Shown in pieces: positions 12,021 to 32,720 of a stretch of DNA of 64,000 nt (positions are counted from its first letter, which is position 1; each line of letters starts with the position of its first letter). The notes beneath the pieces were generated by a model. It was not told where the DNA came from. It saw only the letters and a program-made list of their open reading frames with translations, and searched no databases. The stretch covers positions 250,964 to 314,963 of the forward strand of contig CAVYTY010000023.1 of NCBI GenBank assembly GCA_963771395.1, given 5' to 3'. Made by a program: the position numbers and the translations under genes. Source of the stretch: an uncultured Acidobacteriota bacterium (GTDB lineage Bacteria; Acidobacteriota; Vicinamibacteria; Vicinamibacterales; 2-12-FULL-66-21).

Positions 12021-12036
12021 CGCGCCGCGTCGTTCG

Positions 12037-15784: not shown

Positions 15785-15785
15785 T

Positions 15786-15928: not shown

Positions 15929-16042
15929 CTGTTTTTGCTATTCGGCCGAAGGCGCGCGTTCGCAGATTCTGAAACGATCCTGGCGGGTCGCCCGATATTC
16001 TGAGCAAATCCGCGCGGCATGCTGCGTGCTCCGCGCTTCTGC

Positions 16043-16582: not shown

Positions 16583-18072
16583 TACTTGCGCGGCAGCCGT
16601 TCGTCGCGCATCGAAGCGTTGTAAGCAAAGACGGCGATGACCGTGGCCTGCTGGATCATGTCGTCGGCCTGCACGCGATCGAACGTGTCCATGTTCGAGT
16701 GATGCGTGCGCGAGTTGTATTCGAGCCGGTCGACCATGAACTGAAAGGCGGGCAGGCCGACGGCGTCGAACGAGACGTGATCGGTCGAGGTCACCGAGCG
16801 GGGTCCGATCGCGAACACGCCGAGATCCTCGAGCGGCTCCATCCACTGCCGGAAGATCGGCTCGACGGCGGCGTTGCCCTGCAGCCAGATCCCTCGCACG
16901 CGACCGGTACCGTTGTCGGAGTTGAAGTACGCCGACAGCTTCTCGTGCGCCGGTGTGCGTGTCGTCGTCGCCGGATCGCCGTAGTGTTCGCGGACGTACG
17001 CGCGGGAGCCCAGCAGGCCTTCTTCTTCGCCGCCCCAGAGTCCGATCCTGATCGTCCGCCTCGGCTTCGCGCCCACGGTCGTGAGGATGCGCAGGGCTTC
17101 CATCATCGCAGCCGAGCCCGTGGCGTTGTCGGTTGCGCCCGTGCCTGCCGCCACTGAGTCGAAATGCGCGCCGAGCATCACGATTTCGTCCTTCAGCACC
17201 GGATCGCTCCCGGGCATCTCCGCGATGATGTTGAATCCGTTGTCCGTCGTTTCGTCATGGAACTTCGTCTGCACGTTGAGCTCGACTTTCACGGGCACAC
17301 CCTTGCCGAGGATCCGAACGAGGCGGTTGTAGTGTTCGACTGCGAGCGTCACGGTGGGCAGCCCGGTGCCGGCATCGGGGCCGCGCGATCCGCTGCCGGT
17401 CGGGAAGATCGTGCCGCCGTCGGGCCGCTGCTGACGCCACGACATGTCGCTTCCACCAGCGGACATGTCCGAGTCGCTGCCGCGGTTGAAGAGCGCGACG
17501 ACACCTTCGGCCTTGTAGAAGGCCTGCAGTCTCTGTTGAAAGCTGGCGGCCTCTCCTCGGCTGCTGCCGCGTCCTCCGCGCCCCGCGCCGGCTCCCCGAC
17601 CCGCGGGGACGGTGGCCGCTTCTTCAAAGTCCTTCTCCGTCATGCGTAGGACGAACGGCCCTTCGAGCATTCGCACCTCGCGCGCCGGCTGTGTGAGGAC
17701 GATCTTGCCTTTGAGCGTGCCGCGGTACTTTTGAAAGTCCGCGTCGTTTTCGATCTGCACGCGGGCGACGTCGGCAACGACGACGCCGTTCGTGCCCGAG
17801 GTCCATGAACCTGGAAAGCCGATGAGCGGCTCGATTTGCGGTTCGACGAGATGCGCGCTGAACCGCACGAGCGACCAGCCTTTGCCAAACGGAAATGTCT
17901 CGAGGTGGGGATTTGCGAGGCCCCACTCGGCAAACTTCTCGAGCGTCCAGTTGGCGGCCTGTCTGATGCCCGGGCCGCCAGTCAGCCGCGGCCCGTAGAC
18001 GTCGCTCAGCCAGCTGATGTGATCCATGACCCGGGATCGCTTCAGTCCCTCGTCGCGGATCTTCGCGATCAT
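16582..18072 (-). CDS. M28-family aminopeptidase
   Basis: 496-aa ORF with GAHFDSVAAGTGATDNATGSAAMMEALR and GLWGGEEEGLLGSRAY metal-ligand regions. The candidate signal peptide lies upstream in other frames (see findings). Confidence 0.85.
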   Translation of the reverse strand: MIAKIRDEGLKRSRVMDHISWLSDVYGPRLTGGPGIRQAANWTLEKFAEWGLANPHLETFPFGKGWSLVRFSAHLVEPQIEPLIGFPGSWTSGTNGVVVADVARVQIENDADFQKYRGTLKGKIVLTQPAREVRMLEGPFVLRMTEKDFEEAATVPAGRGAGAGRGGRGSSRGEAASFQQRLQAFYKAEGVVALFNRGSDSDMSAGGSDMSWRQQRPDGGTIFPTGSGSRGPDAGTGLPTVTLAVEHYNRLVRILGKGVPVKVELNVQTKFHDETTDNGFNIIAEMPGSDPVLKDEIVMLGAHFDSVAAGTGATDNATGSAAMMEALRILTTVGAKPRRTIRIGLWGGEEEGLLGSRAYVREHYGDPATTTRTPAHEKLSAYFNSDNGTGRVRGIWLQGNAAVEPIFRQWMEPLEDLGVFAIGPRSVTSTDHVSFDAVGLPAFQFMVDRLEYNSRTHHSNMDTFDRVQADDMIQQATVIAVFAYNASMRDERLPRK

Positions 18073-18243
18073 CGAGAGGTCGAGCTTTTCGGCAATGGGG
18101 CTGGGCGCGTGGGATGGCGATCACCCCGAGCATCAGACAGACACACGACAGACAGACGCTTCATGAGCAGGCTCCAGAGAGAGCTTCCATGCTTAGCAGC
18201 CCGTCGCGTTGACACTCGACTGTGGCTGCGGGTCGGCGTTGCT

Positions 18244-18334
18244 GGGTCATCCATTTTCTAATGCGTGCGCGGAAGCCGCTCACTCGACGAGAAAATCGAG
18301 ATTTGACCCCGGTCAACCGCAGTTGACGGCCTCG
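18244..18334. repeat. hairpin element F, copy 1 (degenerate stem)
   Basis: gggtcatccattttctaatgcgtgcgcggaagccgctcactcgacgagaaaatcgagatttgaccccggtcaaccgcagttgacggcctcgc aligns along its length with 22558-22654. Confidence 0.8.
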
Positions 18335-18422
18335 CGGCTTCATCAAGCTGCCCTCTATACCAGGTGTCAGCAAATGCTCGGGGATGCGCTATCGTAAGGG
18401 AGGTTCGCGAACCGCCCTACCC

Positions 18423-19535
18423 ATGTCCATGATGCACCCCATTTTGAGCGCGGCGCTCCTGCTGTTGCTCTCCCAGACGCCAAAGCCTGCGGTCCCGTTT
18501 ACGACGCCGTTGACGAAGGCCGAGATGGCCGGGAAACAGGCCGTCGTGGCAACCAGCGCCGGCACGTTCGTCATCGACCTGCGGCCGGAACTCGCCCCCA
18601 ATCACGTCGGTTACTTCATCAAGCTGGCGAAGGAGGGCATCTACGACGGCACGACCTTCCATCGTGTCGTGCGTCTCGGCATCATTCAAGGCGGAGATCC
18701 TCTGTCGAAGGACCCGGCGAAGATCAAGCTGTACGGCACGGGCGGGCTGGGCATCCTCAAGGCCGAAATCAGCAGCGAGAAGCACACGAGGGGTGTGGTA
18801 TCGGCCGTCCTCCAGCCCGGCCGGCCCGATAGCGCGGGGTCGCAGTTCTTTGTCGCGGTGACCGATCAGCCGGCGCTCGACGGCAAGTACACGATCTTCG
18901 GACGCGTGTCCGAGGGGCTCGACGTCGTGCAGAAGATTTCCGAAGTTGCCGCTGACGAGAGAGGCGCACCGGCCGAGCGCGTCGAGATGCGCAGCGTGAC
19001 CATCCGCGATACGCCGCCGCCGGAACCAGAGCCGTTCGCGACCGAGTCGTCCGCGGACCTCGCGAAGTATCGGGCGGCCCTCGAGACGTCCGCCGGCTCG
19101 ATCACAGTCGAGCTCCTTCCCGACAAGGCACCCGAGCACGTGCGCAACTTCCTGCGGCTGGCCTCGGCCGGAGTCTTCGACGGCACGGCCTTTCACCGTG
19201 TCGCCCGGGGATTCGTGATCCAGACCGGCGCGCTGACGTCGCGTGGCCCGTTGACCGAGAAGCAGCAGAAGTTGGTTCGGTCGCTGCAACCGGAGTTCAA
19301 CGACACCAGGCACGTGAAGGGCATCCTCTCCATGGCCCGCGGCGACGACCCGGCGAGCGCATCCACGTCGTTCTTCATCGTCACTGGTGATGCGCCGTCG
19401 CTTGATGGTAAGTACACTGTGTTTGGCCGCGTGGTCGAGGGGATGGCCGTCGTCGAGGCCATCGAGCAGTCGGCGGTCAGCGGCGAGGCACCCGTCCAGC
19501 GCGTCGACCTGAAGTCCGTTCGCGTCCTCAAATAG
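18423..19535 (+). CDS. secreted tandem cyclophilin-type peptidyl-prolyl isomerase
   Basis: Two cyclophilin domains (FHRVVRLGIIQGGDP...GSQFFV and FHRVARGFVIQTG...STSFFIV) after a hydrophobic signal segment. Confidence 0.9.
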   Translation: MSMMHPILSAALLLLLSQTPKPAVPFTTPLTKAEMAGKQAVVATSAGTFVIDLRPELAPNHVGYFIKLAKEGIYDGTTFHRVVRLGIIQGGDPLSKDPAKIKLYGTGGLGILKAEISSEKHTRGVVSAVLQPGRPDSAGSQFFVAVTDQPALDGKYTIFGRVSEGLDVVQKISEVAADERGAPAERVEMRSVTIRDTPPPEPEPFATESSADLAKYRAALETSAGSITVELLPDKAPEHVRNFLRLASAGVFDGTAFHRVARGFVIQTGALTSRGPLTEKQQKLVRSLQPEFNDTRHVKGILSMARGDDPASASTSFFIVTGDAPSLDGKYTVFGRVVEGMAVVEAIEQSAVSGEAPVQRVDLKSVRVLK

Positions 19536-19587
19536 CAACTGCGTCGCCGAGAGCCGGAACGCCGCGCACGGCGTCAAAAGGCCGGGA

Positions 19588-20838
19588 GTGCATATGAAGA
19601 GTCTTCGAGATCTCAACAGGCTGTCTGCAGCCTTTGCCACCGCCATCCTCTTTGTGGCCCTGCCGGCGGTCGTTTCGAACCGCACAGCGGACGATTGGCC
19701 ACAATGGCGCGGGCCGAACCGCGATGGTCGGTCGGCGGAAACGGGACTGCTGAAAGACTGGCCGGCCGGTGGGCCGCCGCTCGCCTGGCGGACGACGGGC
19801 GCCGGGGAGGGCTATTCGTCGTTTGCGACCTCCCAGGGCCGGCTGTTCACGCTCGGGGCTCGGGGCGGTACCGAGTATGTGGTGGCCTTCGACGCGGCCA
19901 GCGGCAAGCGTCTGTGGGAAACAGCCCACGGGTCCCGGTTCAGCAACGACCGCGGTGATGGGCCTCGCGCCACTCCCACGATCGAAGGCGATCGCGTCTA
20001 CGCGTTTGGCGCGAGCGGCGATTTGAGCGTGCTCGATGCGGCAAGTGGCAAGGTGCACTGGACTGTCAACGTGCTCAAACAGTACCGAGGTTCGAACATC
20101 CAATGGGGGCTGAGCGAATCGCCTCTCCTGCTGGAAGATCGGATTCTCCTCAATGCCGGCGGGACGATCGTCGCGCTCAAGAAAACCGACGGCAGCAGGA
20201 TCTGGACGACCCAGGGCGACGAAGCGGGCTACTCGTCGGCAGTCCATCATCAGTCCGGCTCTATCAACGAGGCGATCTTCTTCACGAGCCGGCAGGTCTT
20301 GGGCGTCGACGTCAACAGCGGCCGGCGGCTGTGGAGCTATGGTCCGGTCGCCAATAACACCGCCAACATCGCGACGCCGATTGTGCGCGGCAACCGTGTG
20401 TTCGTGTCGTCGGCCTACGGTACCGGGGGGGCCCTGCTCGAGCTGACGGCGTCAGGCAGCAACGTCACTGCCAAAGAGGTCTACTTCACCCGTCAGATGA
20501 TGAACCACCATGCAACGTCCGTCCTTGTGGGCGAGCACCTGTATGGGTTCAACAACGCCATCCTCACGGCGCTGAAGTTCGACACGGGGGAGGTCGCCTG
20601 GCAGAACCGCAGCGTCGGCAAGGGTTCACTGACCTTTGCCGACAATCGACTGTATTTGTACAGCGAAGGCGGGGTTGTCGGGCTGGCCGAGGCGTCCCCG
20701 AAGAGCTACGTCGAGCACGGCCGTTTCGAGCTCAGGACCGGCCGCCTCCCCACGTGGAGCCATCCCATCGTGTCGGGAGGCAAGCTCTTCCTGAGAGATC
20801 AGGACGTTATCTATGCCTACGACGTCCGCGCCAAGTAA
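19588..20838 (+). CDS. PQQ-like beta-propeller repeat protein, secreted
   Basis: DWPQWRGPNRDGRS entry motif followed by repeated propeller-blade-like segments. Confidence 0.8.
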   Translation: MHMKSLRDLNRLSAAFATAILFVALPAVVSNRTADDWPQWRGPNRDGRSAETGLLKDWPAGGPPLAWRTTGAGEGYSSFATSQGRLFTLGARGGTEYVVAFDAASGKRLWETAHGSRFSNDRGDGPRATPTIEGDRVYAFGASGDLSVLDAASGKVHWTVNVLKQYRGSNIQWGLSESPLLLEDRILLNAGGTIVALKKTDGSRIWTTQGDEAGYSSAVHHQSGSINEAIFFTSRQVLGVDVNSGRRLWSYGPVANNTANIATPIVRGNRVFVSSAYGTGGALLELTASGSNVTAKEVYFTRQMMNHHATSVLVGEHLYGFNNAILTALKFDTGEVAWQNRSVGKGSLTFADNRLYLYSEGGVVGLAEASPKSYVEHGRFELRTGRLPTWSHPIVSGGKLFLRDQDVIYAYDVRAK

Positions 20839-20846
20839 CCATCAGC

Positions 20847-20928
20847 GGGGACACTCAACCGGGACAGTCCCCGGGGACACTCAACCGGGACAGTCCCCAG
20901 GGACACTCAAGGTTGAGTGTCCCCGGGG
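20847..20928. repeat. family-C array C1: 2 x GGGGACACTCAACCGGGACAGTCCCC plus a palindromic variant GGGACACTCAAGGTTGAGTGTCCC
   Basis: Units at 20847-20872, 20873-20898 and 20899-20928. Inner palindromes GGGACAGTCCC and CCCCGGGG. Confidence 0.9.
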
Positions 20929-20997
20929 TGATTCGAGCCATAATGGAGGCGTGGCTTGGTGCCATTCGGAATTAAAGAAGGGTAAACGGGAAGGGTT

Positions 20998-22539
20998 TTG
21001 GCAGACACACGACTGAAGATTGCGGTTTTCATCGACTTCGACAACATTGAAATCGGGGTCAAGAGCACGCTCGGCGTGCAGTTCGATATCGGGGTCGTCC
21101 TCGAAGCACTGAAGGAACGGGGCGACGTCGTTTCCAAGATCGCCTATGGCGACTGGACACGCGCCGGGGACTACAGCCGATCGCTGACGCAGCACGCGAC
21201 CAAGCTGGTGCAGCGCAACCTCACCCCGGGCGGCGACAAGAACGGCGCCGACATCAATCTGGCGCTCGACGCCCTCGAGATGGCGTTCACCCACGGCCAC
21301 ATCAACGCCTACGTCATCGTCGGCGGCGACAGCGATTTCATCAGCCTCGTCGAGAAGCTCAAACAGTACGACAAGCAGATCTTCGTGGTTGGCGGGCGGG
21401 CGTTCACCAGCCTGGTGATGCAGCGCAACTGCCACGAATTCATCGCCTACGAGAACCTCGTCAGCTCACGCCGTACCCAGGACCGCGGGCAGAAGAGCGC
21501 GCCGGCGACGACACAGCAGGCGCCGCTCGATCAGGTGGTGCCGCTCGTGCGCCGCGCGCTCAAGGTGCTGGTCGATCGCGAGGTTACGCCGCAGCTCGGC
21601 CTGCTCAAGAGTACGCTCCTGCAGCTCGATTCCACGTTCTCCGAGCGTACGTATGGCGCGGGCAGCTTCCGTGATTTCGCGCAGAAGCTTGCCGCGGCGG
21701 GGCACGTCGTATTGCGCGAGGCCGGCCGCAACGTCCTCGTGGAGCTCAGCGACAATGCGCTCGTGACCTCCGCCGTCCCTTCGACCGGGTCTGCGCAGGC
21801 GTCTTCGACGAGCCCCTCGACAAGCTCGGGTCAGAGCAGCGAGGAGCCATGGTCGCGGCAGCAGCAAACAGCGCCGCCGTCACCCGAGCCGTTGACGCGC
21901 GAGACGGCGCCCGTCAACGGGAGCGGTCGCGCCGCTGATGGCATCCGCGAGATCCGCCGCCTGTTTCAGACGGCGCAGCGGCCGCCGCGCTGGCCGATGT
22001 ACATCCGACAGTTGAAGCAGTACCTCCGCGCGGTCGACGCGGCGTTCGATGAGCGCAAGTACGGGTTCGAGACGCTCGGTGATCTCATGCGGGCGTGTCA
22101 GCGCGACGGGCTGCTGCGAATCGAGCGCGATCGTCAGGGCGGGATGCGGATCTTCCCAGGCACGTTGACGGCGCCTGCCGGCGATCCGGCGCCCATGCTC
22201 GACGAAGGTGACGCGCAGGAAGCTGGCGGCTGGGTCCCACCTGTCGATACGTCGAGCGAGCCCGAGGTCATCGAAGGAGACGTCCTGCATGAGATCGACG
22301 TGCCGCAGGTCATCGACGCCGAGGTGACGACGCCGCCGCCCCCAGAGAAACCGTCGCGCCGCCGTCCACGCGCGGCGAAGACCGTTCGACCGACCGGCGA
22401 GGGGCGCGCGCCACGGAAGTCGCCCGACGCACCCGCGGCGCGGAAGGCCGCCGACGGAGCCCCGAAAACGCGAAAGCCGGCCGCCCCGAGGCCGCGTTCC
22501 GCCCGCAGCCGCCCGCGCACCGACGTCCCCCAGGGTTAG
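20998..22539 (+). CDS. NYN (LabA-like) domain protein with two OST-HTH/LOTUS-like domains and a Pro/Ala/Arg-rich tail
   Basis: KIAVFIDFDN...GADINLALDALEMAF...YVIVGGDSDFISLVEKLKQYDKQIFVVG is the NYN core. Two later segments (GLLKSTLLQLDSTFSERTYGAGSFRDF and IRQLKQYLRAVDAAFDERKYGFETLGDL) look like OST-HTH. TTG start. Confidence 0.8.
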   Translation: MADTRLKIAVFIDFDNIEIGVKSTLGVQFDIGVVLEALKERGDVVSKIAYGDWTRAGDYSRSLTQHATKLVQRNLTPGGDKNGADINLALDALEMAFTHGHINAYVIVGGDSDFISLVEKLKQYDKQIFVVGGRAFTSLVMQRNCHEFIAYENLVSSRRTQDRGQKSAPATTQQAPLDQVVPLVRRALKVLVDREVTPQLGLLKSTLLQLDSTFSERTYGAGSFRDFAQKLAAAGHVVLREAGRNVLVELSDNALVTSAVPSTGSAQASSTSPSTSSGQSSEEPWSRQQQTAPPSPEPLTRETAPVNGSGRAADGIREIRRLFQTAQRPPRWPMYIRQLKQYLRAVDAAFDERKYGFETLGDLMRACQRDGLLRIERDRQGGMRIFPGTLTAPAGDPAPMLDEGDAQEAGGWVPPVDTSSEPEVIEGDVLHEIDVPQVIDAEVTTPPPPEKPSRRRPRAAKTVRPTGEGRAPRKSPDAPAARKAADGAPKTRKPAAPRPRSARSRPRTDVPQG

Positions 22540-22557
22540 TCAGTTCGGCGTTTGCCT

Positions 22558-22654
22558 GGGGTCAGATCTCGATTTTCTAATGCGTGAGCGGAAGCCGCTC
22601 ACGCGATTAGAAAATCGAGATCTGACCCCGGACAACTGCAGTTGACGGCCTCGC
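22558..22654. repeat. hairpin element F, copy 2: about 34-bp stem with one bulge, 3-nt loop, conserved tail
   Basis: ggggtcagatctcgattttctaatgcgtgagcgg aag ccgctcacgcgattagaaaatcgagatctgacccc, then ggacaactgcagttgacggcctcgc. It lies between the convergent NYN and dinB genes. Confidence 0.9.
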
Positions 22655-22712
22655 AAGGGTCGACACACCCGCCAATCGGATTTTGCGCTCGGCGAGGCTC
22701 GAGCGCTCAGCC

Positions 22713-23765
22713 TCAGACGTCATTGGCAAAGGGGAGCGCCGTGCCGGCCAGCGGGTCGCTCGGATCGATCAGGTTGTGCACGCTGACGCCGAGCAGACGA
22801 ACGGGTCGTTGGCCGGCCTCGGTGCGATCGAGCAGCGCGCAGGCCCGAGCGGCGAGCGCGTCAGGGTTGCGCGTGGCCGGCAGTTGACTGTGGCTGCGCG
22901 TGATCGTCGTGAAGTCGGAATACCGCACTTTGATCGTCACCGTCCGGCAGACGAGCGTTCGTCGTTCCAGCCAGGCGGCGCTGTCACGCGCCATCTCGTC
23001 GATTGCTGATCGGATCGCAGTGAGGCTGGTGAGGTCCTGCGAGAACGTGTTCTCGCTCCCGCAGGATTTCGCGGCGCGGTCGGGCACCACCGGGCGATCG
23101 TCGACGCCCTGGGCGAGCTGCCGCAGCCATTCCGCCTGGCTGCCGACCGCTTCGCGCAGCGCGGCCTCGCCGGCGGCGCGCACGTCGACCAGTCGCTCGA
23201 TGCCGCGTTCGCGCAGTCGTCTGGCCGTCACCGGTCCGACACCCCACAACGCGTCGACTGGCAGTTGCTGAAGAAAATGCTCGACACGTTCCGGAGCGAT
23301 GACGGTCAGGCCGTCGGGTTTCTTCCACGCCGAGGCGATCTTGGCGAGGAACTTGTTTGGTGCGACACCCGCCGACGCGGTGAGTCCGGTTGCCTCGCGG
23401 ATTTGCGCTTTGAGCCGCTGCGCGACCACGCGGCCAAACGCTTCGCCCCACGCGTTCTCGGTCACGTCCAGGTACGCTTCGTCGAGCGAGAGCGGTTCGA
23501 CAAGGGGCGTTACCGCGCGAAACAACTGGAACACGGCGCGAGACGCGTCTTTGTATCGCGCGAAGTCGGGCCGGATGATGGCGAGCGACGGGCACAGCCT
23601 GACGGCGCGAGCCATCGGTATAGCCGAGCGCACGCCAAAGGCGCGCGCCTCGTAGCTCGCGGCGGCGACGACGCCCCGCTCGGCTGGATCACCACCGACC
23701 GCAACCGGCTTGCCGCGCAGCGAGGGGTTGTCGCGCTGCTCCACGGACGCGTAGAACGCGTCCAT
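22713..23765 (-). CDS. dinB: DNA polymerase IV (Y-family)
   Basis: DMDAFYASVEQRDNP, SLDEAYLDVT and the full Y-family layout. The conserved residues RRILHID are encoded upstream of the first ATG with no canonical start (see findings). Confidence 0.88.
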   Translation of the reverse strand: MDAFYASVEQRDNPSLRGKPVAVGGDPAERGVVAAASYEARAFGVRSAIPMARAVRLCPSLAIIRPDFARYKDASRAVFQLFRAVTPLVEPLSLDEAYLDVTENAWGEAFGRVVAQRLKAQIREATGLTASAGVAPNKFLAKIASAWKKPDGLTVIAPERVEHFLQQLPVDALWGVGPVTARRLRERGIERLVDVRAAGEAALREAVGSQAEWLRQLAQGVDDRPVVPDRAAKSCGSENTFSQDLTSLTAIRSAIDEMARDSAAWLERRTLVCRTVTIKVRYSDFTTITRSHSQLPATRNPDALAARACALLDRTEAGQRPVRLLGVSVHNLIDPSDPLAGTALPFANDV

Positions 23766-24102
23766 GTCGATGTGGAGGATCCTTCTGATTGCGTCAACTC
23801 CCGGGCGGCGCGTCTCCGGCGTTCGCCACGTGCTCGAGCTCGTTGCAGGGGCCTTTTCGGCCCTTGATTGTACTCGTGCTGCTCGGTTCGTAGGGCCCGG
23901 TGACCGCTCTTCTTCGATCTCAACTTCCTATGCCGCTTGACCTCGGCAGTAGACGGTGGCATGGTCGTCTGGAGGCGCCCGCGGTCGGCAACCGGCCCAC
24001 TGCAACCATGGAATCAGCACCCCATGGCGGGCGTTGATCAGGCACGCGTTCTGACGTCTGGTGGCGTCGGGACGAGCGGTGCGCCAGGAGCAGGTCCAAA
24101 CT

Positions 24103-24552
24103 ATGCCTAGTCCTACCGTTGAACGCCACGCCGGTCTGGCTTGGATCCGCGGCAGCGGCGTCTGCCGTAAGTGGAACGGCATCGACTACAAGCTCGGGAT
24201 GTCAGGGAAGAACGTCGGCGCCAGGGCGCTGTCGATGAACGTGGCGGTGATTCCACCGGGCGGGATTGCCGGTGCGCACATTCACGTGGACTTCGAGGTG
24301 ATGCTCTATATCCTCGAGGGCCGGGTACAGCACGCGTATGGCGAGCGGCTGGCCCACGGTGTCGAGCACGAGGCCGGCGACTTCATTTTCATCGAGCCTG
24401 GTGTACCGCACGAGGTCTATAACCTGAGCGCTTCTGAACCCGTCGTTGCCGTCGTCGCGCGGTCGAGCGCCGACGAGTGGGACAACATCATTCCTTATGA
24501 CAAGACGGCGGTTGAAGGCGGGCCGCGCGCTGCGGGCGACGAGATCGCCTGA
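24103..24552 (+). CDS. cupin-domain protein
   Basis: GGIAGAHIHVDFEVMLYILEGRV...GDFIFIEPGVPHEVYN matches the two-motif cupin pattern. Confidence 0.7.
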   Translation: MPSPTVERHAGLAWIRGSGVCRKWNGIDYKLGMSGKNVGARALSMNVAVIPPGGIAGAHIHVDFEVMLYILEGRVQHAYGERLAHGVEHEAGDFIFIEPGVPHEVYNLSASEPVVAVVARSSADEWDNIIPYDKTAVEGGPRAAGDEIA

Positions 24553-24578
24553 TGGCCAAAACGGTCGGCCGCAGTCGC

Positions 24579-27167
24579 CTACTGGGCTCTGAGTGCCACG
24601 ACCGGATCCACTTGTGACGCACGACGCGCCGGCAGGTAGGCCGCCGCGAGCGCGACCGACAGCATCAGCAGGGCGGCCAGGGCGAAGGTCAGAGGATCGG
24701 TCGGAGACAGACCGAACAGGAGCGATTGCACGACGCTCGTGCCCCCCAGCGCTGCGACCACACCGACGGTGACGCCCACCAGTGCTAGCAGCAGTGCATT
24801 CTTCATCACCATCCACCGCACTGCCCACTGCTCGGCGCCAAGCGCCATGCGGATGCCGATCTCCGGAATTCGTCGGCTTACCGAGTACGCGAGGATTCCG
24901 TAGAGGCCGATGGCGGCGAGGAGCACGGCGATGCCTCCGAGCACTGTCGCCAGGGTCGCCATCAGCCTGACCCTTTGCAGCGATGCGTTGATCTGGTCCT
25001 CCTGCGTCCGAACCCCCGTGATCGGAAGATGGGGATCGACCCCGCGCACGACTTCGCGTACCTGCGGAACGACAGTCGCCGGATCGCCCTGCGTTTTCAC
25101 CTCGAAGGTCGTCCCGGCTACGCGCGTCTGCCTGTAACCTGTGTAGAGCGTCGGCGGGGCGTTGGTGCGAATCGATGTGTACTTGGCGTCGCCGCAGACG
25201 CCGATCACGTCCATCACCATAGAGTCCTTCGTGGTGCCCCACCTGAACTGGCGGCCGATCGGATCGGCTTCCCCGAACAGTCGCTGCGCGAGCGCGCGAT
25301 TGATCACAGCGACCGGCTGTGCTTGGCCCGTGTCTCCAGGCGCGAACTCCCGCCCCCGCAACACCGGGATTCCCAGGGTGCCGAAGAAGCCGTCGCCGAC
25401 AGTCAGTCGCATGGTCGAGTATTGGCGTTGCAGCTCGCGATCCTCGGCGCTGTTGGGCGTCACGACAGGCGTGTCGATCGGCACCGCTGGCCCGCTCGAT
25501 CCGCCGCCCGAGATGAGCGTCGCGCTCGAGAACGAGGCCGACCGCACGTTTGGGATTGCACTCAACCCGGCCTGGATCTGTTCGAGGAGCGCGCGCGTTC
25601 TCGGAAGGTCGTACCCGGCACGTACCGGGTCGATCCGGAAGATCAGAGTGTTCGAGGCGTCGAATCCCGGGTCCACACGCTGAAGGTTGCGGATGGAGTA
25701 CACCAGGAGGCCCGCGACCGTGACGAGCAGCACCGAGAGCGCGACCTGCACGATCACGAGCCCGCCCGTGAGCCGCACGCCTGCGCGGCCGCCCGTCGTG
25801 CCGCGCATGTGCTCCTGCAGGCCAGAGGCGGCGTTGACGTCGGTGGTGCGCAGAGACGGCACCAGGGCGAATAGCACGCAGCATGTGGCGGTGACGGCGG
25901 CCGTGAAGAGGAAGACGCGCCAGTCGGTCCGGATGTCGAACGAGTCGAAGGCGGCATTGCTCAACGCGGGCAGCAGCCCGGCGGCGATGGAATCGGCGAC
26001 CAGTAATCCGAGCGCGCTGCCGAAGAGGGCGAGCAGGAGTCCTTCGGTCACGAGCTGCCGTACGATTCTCTGGCGCGACGCGCCGATGGCGACGCGCAGC
26101 GCGACCTCGCGGACCCGCGAGACTCCCCTCACGAGAAGGAGATTCGCCACGGTCGCGCATGCGACGAGGAGCACGACGCCGACGACCGAGGCCATGATGA
26201 GCAGCGACTCCATCGACCCTCCCCTGTCGTCCTGTCCCCATGCACCCGGCAACAAGTCGAGTCGCGGCAGCTCGTGCGCGACCAACGACGGATTCGCTTC
26301 CGCGGCGGTACGCTTCAGCGTTTGGTCGAGGAGAGCCTGCACGGCGTCCGGAGATACTCCGGGCCGCAGCCGTGCCATGACGAGCACCCACCAGTAGCCG
26401 GGATCCCGCCACTGCGCGCGACTCTCGATGGCAGGACGGACTGCCATCGGCAGCGTCACATCGGGGGAATCGCCGACCTGGAGCGCACCGTGAAAGCCCT
26501 TCGGCGTCACGCCGACGATGGTTACCGGCACCCGATTGACGATGAGGGTCTTTCCGACGACGTTCGGTGCCCGTCCGAACCGGCCCGTCCAGAATCCGTA
26601 GCTGATCACGGCGGCAGGTGGAGCGTCCGCCCTGTCGTCGCTGTCGAGCAGGAGTCGCCCGGCCGCCGCGCGAATGCCGAGGGTGGAAAAGTAGTCGCCC
26701 GAGACGACCTGCCCGCTCCCGACTTCCGCGTGGCCGTCGACCATCACGTCGAGGCTGCCGTAGAGATTGGCAAAGCCAAAGACCCGGGCGACAGCGGCCG
26801 CGTCCTGCCGAAACGCGTCGAACGCCGGGAAGGAGAACGACGTGCTGCCGGTCGCCGTGCGGTCACCGGAGAAGTTGCCGGTAATCGACCCCGCGGGGTT
26901 GCGGGGGCCGGCCTGCCATCTGAAGACGGCGAGCTCGTCCGGCGCCACCACAGGCAGCTTCCGCAGCACCAGGGCGTCGGCCAGGCTGAACACCGCTGCC
27001 GTCGAGCCGATGCCGATTGCCAGCGACAGCACGGCGACGACGGTGAAGGCCGGCGATCCTCTCAGCAGCCGCACGCCGTAGCGCAGATCCTGACCAACCG
27101 TCTCGAGCGAAGGGAAGCCCCACATCTCACGCGACTCCTCTCGTTTGACTGTCTGGTTGCCGAACAT
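24579..27167 (-). CDS. ADOP-type duplicated MacB/FtsX ABC-transporter permease
   Basis: 862 aa. N-terminal QDLRYGVRLLRGSPAFT. Two MacB_PCD/FtsX halves. It lies downstream of a PadR gene, as is typical for the acidobacterial ADOP family. Confidence 0.9.
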   Translation of the reverse strand: MFGNQTVKREESREMWGFPSLETVGQDLRYGVRLLRGSPAFTVVAVLSLAIGIGSTAAVFSLADALVLRKLPVVAPDELAVFRWQAGPRNPAGSITGNFSGDRTATGSTSFSFPAFDAFRQDAAAVARVFGFANLYGSLDVMVDGHAEVGSGQVVSGDYFSTLGIRAAAGRLLLDSDDRADAPPAAVISYGFWTGRFGRAPNVVGKTLIVNRVPVTIVGVTPKGFHGALQVGDSPDVTLPMAVRPAIESRAQWRDPGYWWVLVMARLRPGVSPDAVQALLDQTLKRTAAEANPSLVAHELPRLDLLPGAWGQDDRGGSMESLLIMASVVGVVLLVACATVANLLLVRGVSRVREVALRVAIGASRQRIVRQLVTEGLLLALFGSALGLLVADSIAAGLLPALSNAAFDSFDIRTDWRVFLFTAAVTATCCVLFALVPSLRTTDVNAASGLQEHMRGTTGGRAGVRLTGGLVIVQVALSVLLVTVAGLLVYSIRNLQRVDPGFDASNTLIFRIDPVRAGYDLPRTRALLEQIQAGLSAIPNVRSASFSSATLISGGGSSGPAVPIDTPVVTPNSAEDRELQRQYSTMRLTVGDGFFGTLGIPVLRGREFAPGDTGQAQPVAVINRALAQRLFGEADPIGRQFRWGTTKDSMVMDVIGVCGDAKYTSIRTNAPPTLYTGYRQTRVAGTTFEVKTQGDPATVVPQVREVVRGVDPHLPITGVRTQEDQINASLQRVRLMATLATVLGGIAVLLAAIGLYGILAYSVSRRIPEIGIRMALGAEQWAVRWMVMKNALLLALVGVTVGVVAALGGTSVVQSLLFGLSPTDPLTFALAALLMLSVALAAAYLPARRASQVDPVVALRAQ

Positions 27168-27274
27168 CCGGCAACAAATCCTGACCGTCCGTTCGCTTCT
27201 TTCCCATAGACGAACTATGCGTATGAACGGTTGGCAAACGGCTTGTCAAAGTTCAGGAGATTTCAATTCCAGGA

Positions 27275-27424
27275 GGTTCAGAAGGTTCAGGAGGTTCAAG
27301 AGGGTTCAGAAGGTTCAATCGTTGCTCGCACCTGAATTTGCGAGCTCGCGCCTTCGGCCGAATGGCAAAAACAATGAACCCCTGAACCTCCTGAACCTCT
27401 TGAACCTCGTGAACCCCCTGAACC
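27275..27424. repeat. family-A composite A3: 5 GGTTCA units (27275-27317), 57-bp core, and 6 TGAACC units (27375-27424)
   Basis: Unit starts 27275, 27284, 27293, 27303, 27312 and 27375, 27383, 27392, 27401, 27410, 27419. The core is homologous to the leader of the 16-kb four-helix-bundle gene. Confidence 0.9.
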
Positions 27425-27425
27425 C

Positions 27426-27824
27426 TCACCATCCCGTATGACGGGGCGTTTTCGATGGAGCCGCGCCAGGCCACATGCGGAGCGTCAAATCCTCGAGTTC
27501 GTCCTGCAGGCCGGCGGTCATCACGCTGAACGTGCGGTAGGCGCGGACCAGTGCTCGTTGTCCCGCCGTGTCGAGCAGGTAGTGTTTTCGGCGGCGGCCG
27601 CCGCGTTGCGCGGTCGGCGTGCCGACGTACGAGCACACCATGCGTTTGCCTTCGAGGCGATCGAGCGTGACGTAGACGGCGCTCGCGGGCACATCGCGGC
27701 CCGTGCGCGTGACGATCTCGCGGTGAATGGCCGCGCCGAAGGCGCCGTTCCCGAGCCGCAGCAGCGCGAGCAGCACGAGCTGTTCGAACTCGCCCAGAAT
27801 CGAACCAAACGGAAACGGCTTCAT
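27426..27824 (-). CDS. PadR-family transcriptional regulator
   Basis: GEFEQLVLLALLRLGNGAFGAAIHREI...SAVYVTLDRLEGKRMV winged-helix pattern. The internal ATG at 27824 was chosen as the start. Confidence 0.85.
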   Translation of the reverse strand: MKPFPFGSILGEFEQLVLLALLRLGNGAFGAAIHREIVTRTGRDVPASAVYVTLDRLEGKRMVCSYVGTPTAQRGGRRRKHYLLDTAGQRALVRAYRTFSVMTAGLQDELEDLTLRMWPGAAPSKTPRHTGW

Positions 27825-27830
27825 ATACCT

Positions 27831-27866
27831 AACATAGTATGTTATACAATGACGTTCGTAAACGTC
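27831..27866. promoter_or_regulatory. candidate PadR operator/promoter: palindromes AACATAgTATGTT (27831-27843) and GACGTTcgtaAACGTC (27851-27866)
   Basis: Both lie in the only AT-rich stretch of the region, immediately upstream of the padR start. Confidence 0.3.
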
Positions 27867-28028
27867 TGATTTCACTCCAGAAACCGTGCCTGCCGGCGAA
27901 CGCCGCTGAAAGCATTTGCGGCACCTGAACGGTGTGGCAATAATAAGTGGCTTCAAGGACGGCCACGTATTTCCGTGCCTCCCCCGCTTCATCTTTTGTC
28001 ATAAGCAATCGTGAAAGGACGGACTTCT

Positions 28029-30215
28029 ATGGGCTCTGCATCGGCGAGCGACACCATTCGCAACATCAGCAACTGGAATCTCGGGGTCAAGGCGACGCCG
28101 AGTACTTCGCGCTCCAAGGCCAGCGACGAGTTCGGCTCGTTGACGTTCAGCGACGAGGCTCAGCGCGCGCGTCTGCCGAAGGATGTCTACCGCGCGCTTC
28201 GACGCGCGGTCGCACAGGGAGAGCCCATCGATGCGTCCGTTGCCGATATCATCGCGACCGCGTTGAAGGACTGGGCGGTCGAGCACGGCGCCACCCACTA
28301 CACGCACTGGTTCCAGCCGATGACGGGCATCACCGCCGAGAAGCACGACTCGTTTCTCTCGCCGACGGCCGACGGCCGGGCCGTAGCCGAGTTCAGCGGC
28401 AAGGAGCTCATCAAGGGCGAGCCCGACGCCTCCAGCTTTCCGTCGGGCGGGATGCGCTCCACGTTCGAAGCGCGGGGCTACACGGCCTGGGATCCCACCA
28501 GCCCTCCCTGGCTGCTGGTGATGCAGAACGGCACCACGCTCGTCATCCCGACGGCGTTCGTGAGCTGGACGGGCGAGGCGCTCGACAAGAAGACGCCGCT
28601 CCTCCGGTCGATGGAGGCCCTCTCGAAGCAGGCCGTCCGCATTCTGAAGTTGTTCGGGTCGAAGGCCCAGCGGGTCGTCGCGACGTGTGGCCCCGAGCAG
28701 GAATACTTCCTCATCGATCGGCAGTTCTTCTTCAATCGTCCGGACCTCATCAACGCCGGCCGGACGCTCTTCGGCGCCAAGCCCCCGAAGGGACAGGAGC
28801 TCGAGGATCAGTATTTCGGCGCGATACCCGACCGCGTGCTCGCGTTCATGATGGAGGTCGAGCGGGAGCTGTACAAGGTCGGCGTGCCGGTCAAGACGCG
28901 GCACAACGAGGTCGCGCCGAGCCAGTATGAAGTCGCGCCGATCTTCGAGAACGCCAACGTCGCCACCGATCATCAGATGATGACGATGGAAATGATGCGG
29001 CGGATCTCGCCGAAATACGGTCTTGCGTGCCTGCTGCACGAGAAGCCGTTCGCGGGGGTCAACGGCTCCGGCAAGCACCTCAATTGGAGCATCAGCGACG
29101 ACCTCGGCAACAACCTGCTGAACCCGGGTGACGCGCCGCACGACAACGTCCAGTTCCTGGTGTTCTGCGCGGCGGTCATCCGTGCCGTGAACAAGTTCCA
29201 GGGCCTGCTGCGCTACAGCATCGCCAGCGCCGGAAACGATCACCGGCTCGGCGCGAACGAAGCACCGCCGGCCATCATCTCGATCTTCCTCGGCGACATG
29301 CTGACCGACATCTTCCAGCAGATCGAGAAAGCGGGCAGCGCCAAGAGCACCAAGCACGGCGGCATCCTCGACATCGGCGTGAGCGTGCTGCCGAAGCTCC
29401 CGCGCGACGCGGGCGATCGCAACCGCACCAGCCCGTTCGCGTTCACCGGCAACAAGTTCGAGTTCCGCGCGGTCTCGGCCAATCAGAGCATCGCGTTCCC
29501 GAACGTGTCGCTCAACGTTGCCGCGGCCGAATCCCTGGACTACTGCGCGACCGAGCTCGAGAAGAGCCTCAAGAGCGGCAAGAAGCTCCAGGCGGCGGTC
29601 AAGGACCTGCTGACGACGATCATCAAGGAGAACAAGCAGATCATCTTCAACGGCAACAACTATGCGGACGAGTGGCAGAAAGACGCGGCGAAGCGCGGTT
29701 TGCTCAACCACAAGACGTCCGTCGACGCGTACGGCGAGGTCCTCAAACCCGACGTCGTGCAGGCCTTCGAGAAGTACGGCGTGCTCAACGAGCGCGAGCT
29801 GAGGGCGCGCTACGAGGTCGCCCTCGAGCAGTACGTCAAGACCATCAACATCGAGGGGCAGCTGATGGTCCTGATGGCGAACCGCTTCATTCTGTCGGCT
29901 GCCTACAGGTATCAGGGACAGGTCGCCGAGAGCGTCTCGGCGGTCAAGGCGGCGGGCGCAAAATCGAAGGAGGGCGCCAAGACGCTCGACCAGCTCGTCA
30001 GATTGACCGACGAATTCAAACAGAAGGCCGACAAGCTCCAGGCGCTGCTCGAGCACGAGGGCGGCGGGGACACCTTCAAGCACGCGAAGTACTTCCGCGA
30101 CAAGGTGGTACCCGCCATGGTCTCGCTGCGGGAAACGGGCGACAGCCTGGAGTGCATCATTCCGCACGAGCTCTGGCCGCTGCCGACATACAGGGAGATG
30201 CTGTTCATCAAGTAA
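28029..30215 (+). CDS. type III glutamine synthetase
   Basis: About 729 aa, with [36 protein letters not shown] and [10 protein letters not shown] motifs. The length is characteristic of GSIII. Confidence 0.9.
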
Positions 30216-30237
30216 GGTCTCGGGGTCGATTTCTGAG

Positions 30238-30269
30238 GCGCCCGGATCCATCCGGGCGCCTTTTTTTTG
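30238..30269 (+). terminator. rho-independent terminator
   Basis: GGCGCCCGGAtccaTCCGGGCGCC followed by eight T, 22 nt after the GSIII stop. Confidence 0.8.
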
Positions 30270-30328
30270 CGCTTCTGCTATCGTGTCGGCACCTCTTCCC
30301 GCTTTCAGCAACCTGCAAAGGAGCCAGC

Positions 30329-30625
30329 ATGGTCATCCGTGAGGTCGGTGTCGGGTCGGCGGCCAAGATCTTCGGCGCGCTGTACGCGGTGTTTGGCTTG
30401 ATTGCCGGCCTGATCGTGGCTGCCGTTGCTCTCGGCGGTGCGGGGCTGGCGGGGACCGGCGACGAGGCCATGCCCGGCTGGTTCGGTGGTCTCTTCGGTG
30501 TCGGCGCCGTGATCTTTCTCCCGATCATGTACGGCGTCCTCGGAGCGATCGGCGCGGCCCTGGCCGCTCTGTTCTACAACATCATCGCGGGGATGGTCGG
30601 CGGCCTGCAAATCGAGGCCGAGTAG
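30329..30625 (+). CDS. small Gly/Ala-rich integral membrane protein
   Basis: 98 codons, AAAGGAG Shine-Dalgarno 6 nt upstream, and two to three hydrophobic helices. Confidence 0.55.
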   Translation: MVIREVGVGSAAKIFGALYAVFGLIAGLIVAAVALGGAGLAGTGDEAMPGWFGGLFGVGAVIFLPIMYGVLGAIGAALAALFYNIIAGMVGGLQIEAE

Positions 30626-30662
30626 GACGCTGGCTGGCCGGGAACATCCGCCAGGGTCGGGC

Positions 30663-31385
30663 ATGCGCCGTTCGTTCCTGACCGCGCGCTGGGAGAACCT
30701 CGTGATTCTGAACTTCGAGGTCTCTCCGACAACGTTGGCGGCACTCGTGCCTCGAGGCACCGAGCTGGACCTCTGGCAGGGCCGCGCGCTCGTCAGCCTC
30801 GTGGGATTCTCCTTCGCGGACACGCGGGTGCGAGGAATCTCGATACCGGGCCACCGGGACTTCGAGGAAGTGAACCTCAGGTTCTACGTGCGCCGCCGCC
30901 TCCCGCCCGGACCGGACCGTCGCGCAGTCGTCTTCATCCGGGAGCTGGTGCCCAGGTATGCAATCGCCGCTCTTGCGCGCCTGCTCTACAACGAGCCCTA
31001 TCTGCCCGTGCCGATGCACCACCGGTCACGCCTCGACCGGCATCGGGGCGGCGAGATCGCGTATGGCTGGCGCTACGGCGGCAAAGAGTTCTTGATGGTT
31101 GCTTCGGTCGAAGGTTCCGCGCAGACGCTCGAGGCCGGATCCGAAGCGGAGTTCATCACTGAGCACTACTGGGGCTGCACGCGGCAACGCGACGGTGGCA
31201 CGCTGGAGTACGAAGTCGAGCATCCGCGTTGGCGTGTCTGGACCACGCCGCGCGTGACGTTCAGCGGGCCGGCCGGCCTACTCTACGGATCGGTGTTCGG
31301 AGAGATCCTCAGTGGGCCACCGCGTTCGGCATTTGTCGCCGAAGGATCGCCGGTGACGGTCTACGCCGGTTGCCGGATCGCTTGA
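30663..31385 (+). CDS. DUF2071 (YqjF-like) family protein
   Basis: FLTARWENLVILNFEV...LVSLVGFSFADTRV...FEEVNLRFYV matches the DUF2071 N-terminal pattern. Confidence 0.75.
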   Translation: MRRSFLTARWENLVILNFEVSPTTLAALVPRGTELDLWQGRALVSLVGFSFADTRVRGISIPGHRDFEEVNLRFYVRRRLPPGPDRRAVVFIRELVPRYAIAALARLLYNEPYLPVPMHHRSRLDRHRGGEIAYGWRYGGKEFLMVASVEGSAQTLEAGSEAEFITEHYWGCTRQRDGGTLEYEVEHPRWRVWTTPRVTFSGPAGLLYGSVFGEILSGPPRSAFVAEGSPVTVYAGCRIA

Positions 31386-31391
31386 GGACGA

Positions 31392-31613
31392 ACACGGATC
31401 GCAGCGATTCACGGATCAATGGACGCGGATCACTCGGGTCACAGATCGACGGGACGCGGATCACACGGATCAACAGATCAACGGGACGCGGATCACGCGG
31501 ATCAACAGATCAACGGGGACGCGGATCACACGGATCGACAGATCAACGGGACCGCGGCTCACGCGGATCACAGATCGACGGGTCGCGGCTCACGCGGATC
31601 GCAATCGCGAGCA
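31392..31613. repeat. family-B array B2: six direct about 32-bp units (GGGACGCGGATCACNCGGATCAACAGATCAAC) plus degenerate lead-in
   Basis: Unit starts at about 31421, 31453, 31485, 31518, 31550, 31582. About 16 GATC sites in about 220 bp. Confidence 0.9.
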
Positions 31614-32440
31614 AAACGTCCCGACGCGAGTTCCGCGCGGGTGAAGTGTTCGGCGAGGATCTCGTTGACCTCGGCGGCGCGGTGGATGGGCAGGCCGTGT
31701 CCGGCCGCGACGATCTCCAGATACTTCGAGCCTGGGATTGCGGCGGCCAGTGCCCGGCCAGTCGCCGGCAGCGCGATGCGGTCTTCGGCAGCGGAGATGA
31801 CGAGCGTGGGTATCGAGGCGAGCCGCGCCAGGTCTGCACCGGCGTCGTACTTCGACATGGCGCCCAACTGCTTCATGACGATCGGGGGCTGTTCCGCCAG
31901 GTCGTGACCGAAGAGCGGGTGCAGCCGTGCGGCAAGCGCGACGCGATCGACCTGCTGCAGGTATCGCTCCGGCATGATCAGTTCGAGGAATGCGTTCCTC
32001 CGCATGGCGCGCGTGCCGATGCGCATGCGCAGTGCGGTCACGAGCATGGCCGACGTGACGTTCGAGCCGTCCTTGCCTTTGGCGAACGTGCACAGGAATG
32101 CGAGGCTCTTGACCCGGGAAGGTGCGCCGAGCGCCAGCGCCTGCGCGATGACTCCACCCATCGAGTGGCCGGCGACGTGAAACCGGTCGATGCCCTCGGC
32201 GTCGATGATCGCGAGCGCGTCGGCGGCCATCGCCTCGATCGTCAACCGCCCGTCGCGCGCAGTGCTCGCGCCGATCCCTCGATTGTCGAATGAGACCAGC
32301 GTGAAACGCTCACGCAGGCCATCGACCTGAGGCGTCCACCCGTTCCCGACAATACCGACCCCCTGAATCAGCAGAACCGGCGGTCCGGTTCCGGTTCGTG
32401 AGTAGAAGAGCGACGCGTCAGGAGTGTTCAGGGTTGGCAC
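31568..32440 (-). CDS. alpha/beta hydrolase
   Basis: PPVLLIQGVG...FDNRGIGAS...GHSMGG nucleophile elbow. The last about 14 codons (DCDPREPRPVDL) and the TGA are encoded by array B2. Confidence 0.85.
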   Translation of the reverse strand: MPTLNTPDASLFYSRTGTGPPVLLIQGVGIVGNGWTPQVDGLRERFTLVSFDNRGIGASTARDGRLTIEAMAADALAIIDAEGIDRFHVAGHSMGGVIAQALALGAPSRVKSLAFLCTFAKGKDGSNVTSAMLVTALRMRIGTRAMRRNAFLELIMPERYLQQVDRVALAARLHPLFGHDLAEQPPIVMKQLGAMSKYDAGADLARLASIPTLVISAAEDRIALPATGRALAAAIPGSKYLEIVAAGHGLPIHRAAEVNEILAEHFTRAELASGRFARDCDPREPRPVDL

Positions 32441-32720
32441 GGTCAGCCGGCCGTCGGAGGCCGACCAATTATCTGATCAATTGGCGAACCTCGAGGCTGG
32501 TGGCCGCCGGCGGCGCGCTCGCCCGGCCTCGATTCATCCCTGTTGCCCACCGCGTCCTGCCGATCGTCACCGGAGTTCAGCCTTTTTCACGCTCCGTTCA
32601 GATCGCTTCAGGCGCCGAATCCGTATCACAGTGTAGTCAGAGATTCGAACCAGCCTTTTCGACAAACTGCCGGTCTGGCCCGAGCCTGGATCGATTCTGT
32701 TCATTGCTGCGGGGTGACGG

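Follow-up and report, generated by a model that had tools for sequence, protein, structure and literature searches.

A 160-nt inverted-array element behind padR is probably a decayed copy of a four-helix-bundle hairpin cassette

How does a long hairpin made of short tandem repeats come to lie between a padR gene and the permease gene that follows it? This question was raised by a 64,000-nt stretch of DNA from an uncultured Acidobacteriota bacterium (the window; contig CAVYTY010000023.1, positions 250,964 to 314,963), in which an element at 27266-27425, here called the 27-kb element, separates padR from the gene for an ADOP-family duplicated permease. Our answer draws on the architecture of the element, the homology of its core to two segments of a gene-bearing cassette, its presence or absence relative to a 95%-identical relative, and its predicted fold. 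Based on these, the 27-kb element is very probably a decayed copy, lacking an open reading frame (ORF), of a four-helix-bundle (4HB) hairpin cassette; it lies directly behind the padR stop codon and would there most likely act as a site of RNase III-type processing or of insulation.

Both flanking genes are on the minus strand. The upstream gene, padR (27426-27824), encodes 132 amino acids of family PF03551, and its TGA stop abuts the element; the downstream gene (24579-27167) matched TIGR03434 with 830 bits. A first reading made from the letters alone (the sequence-only reading) had named the same flanking genes and had described five GGTTCA units, a 57-bp core, and six TGAACC units at 27275-27424. 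Reading of the sequence, TRF, and a pattern search bore out these coordinates and counts: on the plus strand, five GGTTCA units, repeating every 9 nt or so, occupy 27275-27317, the core spans 27318-27374, and six TGAACC units follow at 27375-27424. In the sense of padR and the permease, i.e., on the minus strand, the 5' arm (27375-27424) consists of six GGTTCA units with purine-rich spacers and begins 1 nt past the padR stop codon. The 3' arm (27266-27317) comprises five TGAACC units (27275-27317) followed by a degenerate outer unit and a TGA (27266-27274). GGTTCA occurs 96 times in the window as compared with 20.4 ± 4.9 times in shuffled sequences (shuffle maximum, 34), and the arrays are therefore not a product of chance.

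The reference for the 27-kb element is a full-length cassette on the plus strand at 15786-16581, which fills the whole space between two convergent genes, encoding a Cu-oxidase and an M28 peptidase. From 5' to 3', a GGTTCA array (15786-15915) is followed by a leader (15916-16042) that carries TTTTTGCNATTCGGCCGAAGG, a 4HB gene (16043-16438), and a TGAACC array (16436-16581). The ORF belongs to PF05635 (E = 1.5e-20) and to TIGR02436, 'four helix bundle protein', a family also named S23p or '23S rRNA intervening-sequence protein'. Comparison with homologues placed its true start at 16043, yielding a protein of 131 residues, and the first TGAACC unit supplies its TGA stop. The best match in the PDB was 2GSC, which is XCC0516 of Xanthomonas campestris. 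Look-ups of the exact 4HB and ADOP proteins of the window matched no record. A tblastn search of the window with 81 4HB homologues revealed no further 4HB gene, intact or as a pseudogene, whether at the other arrays or elsewhere.

The core of the 27-kb element corresponds to two separate segments of this cassette. In its reverse complement, positions 2-41 aligned with leader positions 15930-15969 at 36 of 40 nt, which was better than all 2000 shuffled sequences, and the alignment includes a stretch of 26 identities in 27 nt that holds the palindrome TTCGGCCGAA. The sequence-only reading had noted this likeness to the leader just past the first array of the cassette, and the alignment confirmed it. 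Positions 39-57 aligned with 16350-16368, in the 3' part of the 4HB ORF, at 18 of 19 nt, a score that none of 2000 shuffles equaled; the retained piece corresponds to the codons for QVRATI. Together, the two alignments account for all 57 nt. Thus, on the window's minus strand, the leader remnant lies at 27334-27373 and the ORF remnant at 27318-27336, and the TTC by which they overlap marks the deletion junction. Relative to the 16-kb cassette, 380 nt (15970-16349, with the TTC microhomology at the join) and 67 nt (16369-16435) are missing, approximately 447 nt in total. Since the core joins a leader segment to an ORF 3' segment, the 27-kb element is an internal-deletion derivative of a 4HB cassette. 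A deleted derivative had already been suggested from the leader part only; the loss of the interior stood, but the ORF had been taken to be gone entirely, whereas 19 nt of it were kept.

Two further comparisons bear on the specificity and source of the core. The 16-mer TTCGGCCGAAGGCGCG was found at only two places in the window, the 27-kb core and the 16-kb leader, and scans with the leader pattern gave one match each in genome and metagenome contig collections and none in viral contigs. Both matches were due to chance, one being in a coding region of Tannerella and the other on an unrelated 1.2-kb contig, so the leader did not behave as a generic intergenic motif. Among five related cassettes, both core segments were closest to the type represented by the window and by a copy on contig L003.

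We compared the padR-ADOP spacer with that of the closest permease homologue for which DNA was available, P0085 (96% identity), located on the ENA metagenome contig L005. This contig is syntenic with window positions 19477-32658 at 94-95.5% nucleotide identity (GSIII, padR, ADOP, and further). BLAST aligned L005 1058-5153 with window 31503-27426 and L005 5151-5244 with window 27265-27170, such that window 27266-27425 has no counterpart in L005. The L005 junction reads ...GGGATGGTGA/AATCTCCTGAACC..., and the window junctions read ...GGGATGGTGA/GGGTTCAGGGG...CCTCCTGGAATTGA/AATCTCCTGAACT..., with TGA at both. The extra segment of exactly 160 nt consists of the arms and core alone, the outermost 3' unit being degenerate. 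Accordingly, the distance from the padR stop to the permease ATG is 258 nt in the window, as compared with 56 nt in L005, where the old permease start is the end point, and 82 nt in another padR-ADOP pair. The 27-kb element is thus an insertion/deletion polymorphism with discrete limits, and without it the padR-ADOP spacer is 56 nt long. These data agree with the earlier proposals that the element is inserted within a padR-ADOP unit and that such spacers are normally short, and the absence of the core from L005 speaks against an ancestral promoter of the spacer. The empty site, TGAAAT-CTCC-TGAACC, resembles two units of the 3' arm, which may hint at a homology-guided insertion.

Folding of the operon-sense (minus) strand of the element gave -102.2 kcal/mol (z = -9.2), and that of the other strand -90.1 kcal/mol (z = -8.3). 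The arms alone formed 46 pairs at -74 kcal/mol; those of the 16-kb cassette formed at least 115 pairs. The two core segments can also pair with each other (GCUCGCA with UGCGAGC and AUUGUU with AACGAU), extending the stem. Arm-only duplexes and the sequences were relied on in place of duplex z-scores with 250-nt flanks, which were uninformative due to global folding of the long GC-rich flanks. In the minimum free energy fold of the full cassette of the window, the leader paired with the same ORF 3' segment that the 27-kb element retains. As the fold of the L003 copy did not reproduce this pairing, a loop-out deletion is suggested rather than established. Beyond the stem, the operon strand reads UCCUGGAAUUGAAAUCU, with no promoter consensus, and since it has neither a U-tract nor a terminator consensus, the hairpin is not a canonical terminator. 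Neither a sigma-70 promoter nor an intrinsic terminator came up at the 27-kb element when the surroundings of this and the 16-kb locus were scanned, and the leaders held no sigma-70 consensus. Rfam 15 yielded no match at the gathering score; the matches at E ≤ 1 were to generic hairpin-like microRNA families and reached at most 25 bits against thresholds of at least 80.

We propose the following history for the 27-kb element. A full cassette carries its leader and 4HB gene in the loop of a long hairpin whose arms are inverted arrays of GGTTCA units. In the lineage of the window, one such cassette, full or already shortened, would have come to lie right behind the padR stop codon. Approximately 447 nt of its interior are gone, and the arms now enclose 40 nt from the leader and 19 nt from the ORF 3' part. 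The padR and permease genes are presumably co-transcribed through the element, which in that RNA would fold its arms into a stem of about 46 bp that is nearly perfect and is lengthened by the pairing within the core. Such a stem may serve as a processing or stability site for a double-strand-specific RNase of the RNase III type, or at least as a strong structural barrier, and would thereby sever or insulate the padR and permease messages. Processing is proposed because the intervening sequences (IVSs) of rRNA share the gene family, carry tandem heptamers in their stem, and are cut by RNase III. By this analogy, RNase III-type processing or insulation is the most likely function of the stem.

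Several observations weigh against this account or parts of it. The sole ORF of the cassette, the 131-residue 4HB protein, has no transposase, nuclease, or recombinase domain. As this protein is not known to act like a transposase, the cassette is at most a putative 'autonomous' element in the sense of the sequence-only reading. The core is approximately 10% diverged from both available leaders, i.e., those of the window and L003 type, and the donor was therefore another copy rather than the 16-kb cassette of the window. A search for the deletion junction, TCGCAAATTCAGGTGCGAGC, across the window, 26 fetched loci, and viral contigs turned up no second copy. The TGA repeated at the two insertion junctions is only 3 nt long and could be an alignment ambiguity. 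With respect to the direction of the event, in more distant orthologues of the permease gene (87-89%) the position immediately upstream is occupied by a second ADOP gene instead of padR; a gain by the window lineage is favored over loss in L005, although the outgroup does not fix the direction. Finally, when the stability of sense and antisense stems was compared across 16 cassettes, the split was 10 against 6. This split shows no clear bias and therefore does not favor an RNA-level over a DNA-level role.

The divergence of the core is also what would be expected if the element were an active miniature, resembling a miniature inverted-repeat transposable element (MITE), whose shortened arms and 57-nt core were mobilized to the padR site in trans rather than having decayed in place. 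This explanation is a tentative one, although a realistic possibility. It accommodates the composition of the segment missing from L005, which is arms and core only with clean boundaries and TGA at both junctions, the origin of the core from a copy other than the two whose leaders are known, and the pairing of both retained core segments, by which the hairpin is extended. A mobilized miniature would be expected to recur, and the deletion junction was seen once in the sequences named above. Likewise, a protein search with a six-reading-frame chimera of the core, aimed at spurious ORFs annotated over other copies, found nothing. Moreover, no mobilizing enzyme is known for it.

If the element was instead an ancestral part of the spacer, it would have been lost from L005 by a precise deletion between the flanking TGA repeats, long palindromes being unstable. 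We consider this doubtful. The TGA repeats are where such a deletion would place them, and the divergence of the core, approximately 10% as compared with approximately 5% for the hosts, is compatible with an older residence. However, CTGAACCT follows the upstream stop codon within 7 nt in L005 and within 9 nt in the outgroup L012, with no hairpin between; this evidence on direction is weak because the upstream gene of L012 is a different one. In any case, ancestral residence would alter the timing of the event and not the identity of the element.

The position of the 27-kb element, precisely in the transcribed spacer that separates a regulator from its target permease, together with its very stable structure, raises the further question of whether the stem is a domesticated regulatory hairpin, kept for attenuating, terminating, or stabilizing transcripts and so for setting unequal levels of padR and the permease. 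The heptamer arrays of Xanthomonas likewise lie near the 3' ends of upstream genes, at a mean distance of 28 nt (PMC4692102). Domestication nevertheless appears unlikely: the same operon in a 95%-identical relative lacks the element, which is therefore not needed for operon function, the U-tract and terminator consensus are missing, and the core is leftover leader and ORF sequence rather than a designed loop. For the decayed cassette copy that we prefer, the relative that does without it means that the 27-kb element is probably a selfish or neutral remnant and not an evolved regulator.

Other features of the padR-ADOP locus were noted alongside the element. The window lacks 114 nt of the ADOP 5' end that are found in L005 (5245-5358) and in L012 (223-380), the corresponding window region being 27168-27210. 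The old permease start, ATGGGAAAG, is out of frame in the window, and the ORF begins at an internal Met (27167), so that the predicted permease is without the 53-residue N-terminal 'prefix' of its 915-918-residue orthologues. Given the 160 extra and 114 missing nucleotides, the spacer has been altered twice, by an insertion and by a deletion. A palindrome, AACATACTATGTT, at 27828-27845 on the minus strand immediately precedes the padR start; it is kept in L005 and is probably the PadR operator. L003, L004, and L005 come from ENA assemblies of the ERZ250395xx series, and many of their genes, such as those for ADOP, Cu-oxidase, and UvrD, are split into fragments. This suggests frameshift errors, and small indels in these contigs should therefore not be over-interpreted.

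Related cassettes indicate how such elements vary. L004 is syntenic with window 5489-22532 at 85-88% nucleotide identity and carries a cassette at the same Cu-oxidase/M28 site; its 4HB protein is 91% identical, its arms are of GGTTCA with other unit numbers, and its leader has diverged. In L006 and L009, the 4HB proteins are 82% and 78% identical, and the genes lie beside the same Cu-oxidase gene in reversed orientation, between GGTTCA/TGAACC arms with a period of 7-9 nt. Thus, the hexamer is kept across relatives while spacing, copy number, and leader drift. The copy on L003 encodes a protein of 97% identity and has the same leader and arms in an unrelated neighborhood, from which it follows that the cassette occupies more than one kind of site. 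In L006 (9751-10483) and L009 (9781-10440), the 4HB gene is flipped relative to window 15786-16581 while the polarity of the arms is unchanged; the interior can evidently invert, as expected by recombination between inverted arrays. The leaders (window 15969-16005 and its equivalents in L003, L004, and L006; alignment A3) share TTGCnA ... GYTCGCAGATTCTG. The shared part is followed by a TGAAAC-N16-CGATAT-like spacing that resembles promoters of extracytoplasmic function sigma factors and is deleted in the 27-kb element.

The same layout was found beyond these relatives. Inverted short-repeat arrays enclosed the 4HB gene in 16 of 18 loci, with units that differ by lineage; the loci represent 13 lineages in Acidobacteriota-like, cyanobacterial, and Riemerella DNA, and five of the loci belong to the GGTTCA lineage of the window. 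On a 3-Mb contig, the 4HB gene of L013 (41% identity) lies between inverted GGTGCC/GGCACC arrays at 2922-2990 and 3430-3580. A tblastn search identified 12 plasmid-borne 4HB genes (L014-L025; 27-37% identity), of which ten are cyanobacterial, one represents four matching Riemerella plasmid records, and one is a further cyanobacterial locus; the hosts are Nostoc, Leptolyngbya, Geminocystis, Picosynechococcus, Anabaena, Calothrix, and Riemerella. Purine- or G-rich tandem units precede and complementary units follow the gene in 10 of the 12, the units including GGGAGTA, GGGAACA, GGGTGTA, GGTGACA, AAGGGA, GGGAAAA, GGAGAT-like, and AAGGTTC. Wherever a plasmid gene has complementary arrays, the 5' arm is the G-rich one and the 3' arm the C-rich one. 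The other two loci have direct rather than inverted arrays (L023) or no arrays (L021). Plasmid 4HB genes sit tightly within operons, between cas10 and cmr3, between cas6 and cas4 (twice), and between nrdB and nrdA. In one complete 49.7-kb plasmid, the sole complementary array pair is the one around the 4HB gene. We found no report, in a literature search of incomplete coverage, that links 4HB/S23p genes with flanking inverted repeat arrays.

Within the window, almost all of the GGTTCA excess falls in a few arrays: 15786-15915, 16436-16581, 27275-27424, 56177-56263, 58397-58499, and 60055-60103. The array pair at 58397-58499 is a bare GGTTCA/TGAACC hairpin with no core, GGCCA alone separating its arms, and may be a further stage of decay. 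A solo TGAACC array on the plus strand (56177-56263) starts with the TGA that serves as the stop codon of the gene at 54870-56180 (+). In the solo array at 60055-60103, where TGAACC is on the minus strand, the first TGA is likewise the stop codon of the gene at 60094-60993 (-). The arrays consistently abut or supply stop codons, namely, those of padR, the Cu-oxidase gene, the 4HB gene, and the genes ending at 56180 and 60094. Taken together, the solo arrays, the bare hairpin, and the 27-kb and 16-kb loci look like a decay series. The many unrelated arrays of the window, its solo GGTTCA arrays, and the bare hairpin without a 4HB remnant might suggest that GGTTCA arrays arise independently by slippage and that the core resembles the cassette by chance or through a generic motif, but the matches of 36/40 and 18/19 to two cassette segments, equaled by none of 2000 shuffles each, and the absence of the motif elsewhere in the window and in public scans effectively refute this.

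Other repeats of the window were also recorded. A second ORF-less hairpin at 51493-51712 comprises inverted GGTGCC ... GGCACC arrays, the unit pair that also encloses the 4HB gene of L013, with a period of about 8 nt and a core of about 48 nt. Its core showed no similarity above that of shuffles to L013 or to the GGTTCA cassettes, and its candidacy as a cassette remnant is thus unsupported. An array of GACAGTC/GTCGACAGTCA units at 54375-54479 has as its opening letters the TGA at which the upstream gene stops (gagctgTGAcagtc), and the unit is similar to GACAGAT, the heptamer found in the Coxiella IVS. An intergenic family of approximately 32-nt units rich in GGATC/CGCGGATC occurs at three loci (11422-11490, 31409-31600, and 49980-50073), and a palindromic 26-nt unit of the GGGACACTCAACCGGGACAGTCCC type occurs at two intergenic loci (20846-20925 and 63020-63076).

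A wider reading of these results is possible, although we advance it tentatively. Dispersed tandem arrays, such as the short tandemly repeated repetitive (STRR) sequences and those of GGGAATC, GGTTCA, and GGTGCC, might be, whether solo or in inverted pairs, arms or decay products of one widespread and so far unrecognized selfish class of hairpin cassettes with a 4HB (S23p/Avd-like) gene, with the rRNA IVSs as its rRNA-resident cases and the 27-kb element as an intermediate. The series would run from a full cassette through a hairpin with remnants and a bare hairpin to a solo array, the 27-kb element being an intermediate caught in passing. The ring-shaped 4HB pentamer might maintain or spread its own arrays by binding to their units or through a recruited host enzyme, and spread might use unit-like seeds beside stop codons such as that of the empty site.

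Two puzzles of some 30 years' standing meet here, namely, the role of the conserved 'IVS protein' genes and the origin of the abundant 6-9-nt intergenic arrays of cyanobacteria, xanthomonads, and others. The padR-ADOP locus joins both physically, as an inverted array pair with datable scraps of a 4HB cassette that varies between 95%-identical genomes, and the main value of the 27-kb element lies in thus tying dispersed short-repeat arrays to 4HB/IVS cassettes. The layout of a gene in a microsatellite hairpin recurs across phyla with lineage-specific units. Three ideas thereby become testable: that ORF-less array hairpins are cassette remnants, that 4HB proteins recognize their own arrays, and that the hairpins are RNase III sites. 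For annotation, the cassette accounts for 4HB genes wedged in operons (cas10 and cmr3, cas6 and cas4, nrdB and nrdA, accB and XCC0516) and for those near repeat arrays flagged by CRISPR screens; 4HB genes have been noted, unexplained, inside cas loci (PMC3936711).

Among known systems, the proteins of the cassette have structural relatives in the Avd proteins of diversity-generating retroelements (PDB 4DWL), four-helix-bundle pentamers of one fold family with PF05635 proteins such as 2GSC (PMC10053308). Unlike the Avd genes, the cassettes studied have no reverse transcriptase, template repeat, or variable repeat beside them. The repetitive extragenic palindromic sequences and bacterial interspersed mosaic elements (REP/BIME), the enterobacterial repetitive intergenic consensus (ERIC), and Correia-type elements resemble the 27-kb element as imperfect palindromes located in transcription units just past stop codons, and they form RNA hairpins that can alter mRNA processing or stability. 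They differ in sequence and origin, and the arms here are internally repetitive. No RAYT-type transposase came up near the element, although no search was aimed at one.

The dispersed heptamer arrays provide a closer parallel. In X. campestris, Rehm et al. reported 186 arrays of GGGAATC, 70 of them convergent inverted pairs; the arrays lie on average 28 nt from the upstream ORF and were read as G-quadruplex formers (PMC4692102). Like the GGGAATC arrays of Xanthomonas, the GGGGAYT arrays of Nostoc, and the cyanobacterial STRR sequences, those of the window are intergenic tandem arrays of 6-9-nt units, either solitary or in convergent inverted pairs, that lie near the 3' end of the upstream gene and differ in length between relatives (PMC4692102). 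Specifically, the window arrays have a period of about 9 nt, start 1 nt past the padR stop in the case of the 27-kb element, and are either solo (56177 and 60055) or paired (27275, 58397, and 51493). In contrast to the G-quadruplex arrays, GGTTCA contains no G3 tract, longer G runs arising only irregularly from the spacers, and one inverted pair here keeps recognizable remains of a cassette. A supplementary file of the Xanthomonas study (file 2, row 15) lists an array 6 nt past bccP (XCC0517) that overlaps the annotated start of XCC0516 (PMC4692102). XCC0516 is the crystallized 4HB protein 2GSC, and the S23p/4HB family is not mentioned in that study (PMC4692102).

The nearest likeness is to the IVSs. 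Those with S23p/4HB ORFs occur in the 23S rRNA of Coxiella, Leptospira, Brucella, and Xanthomonas (PMC4990558). In Coxiella, three or four tandem GACAGAT heptamers, in strain-variable number, precede the S23p ORF; the first repeat is where RNase III cuts, and strain AuQ01 has a 176-bp deletion in the ORF (PMC4990558). RNase III excision is known for IVSs in other bacteria (PMC4990558). ORF-bearing IVSs and the cassettes described here share a PF05635 gene, a body flanked by complementary ends pairing into a long stem, and an ORF prone to internal deletion, and short ORF-less IVS forms exist in other bacteria. Consistent with this pattern, the 27-kb element derives from a PF05635 ORF and has a long complementary stem. 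However, known IVSs reside in rRNA helices 9, 25, or 45, whereas the cassettes here lie in protein-gene spacers; Rfam found no rRNA in the window, and both the element and the 16-kb cassette are located between protein genes. Being outside rRNA, the 27-kb element is therefore not an IVS in the strict sense. In addition, the arms here are arrays of 5 to 19 hexamer units, and the RNase III excision that is known for IVSs is predicted here.

The relation to MITEs is of a different kind. The 27-kb element resembles them in its terminal inverted repeats (six GGTTCA units versus five TGAACC units and a degenerate one), in an interior deleted relative to a longer gene-bearing relative, in its presence or absence between close relatives, and in a possible short duplication at the junctions. 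It differs in that the longer relative encodes no transposase that is known, its inverted repeats consist of microsatellite arrays and not of unique sequence, and one copy came up in the sequences searched; it is therefore not a proven MITE. The 27-kb element thus combines the architecture and gene family of an IVS with the deletion-derivative relationship of a MITE.

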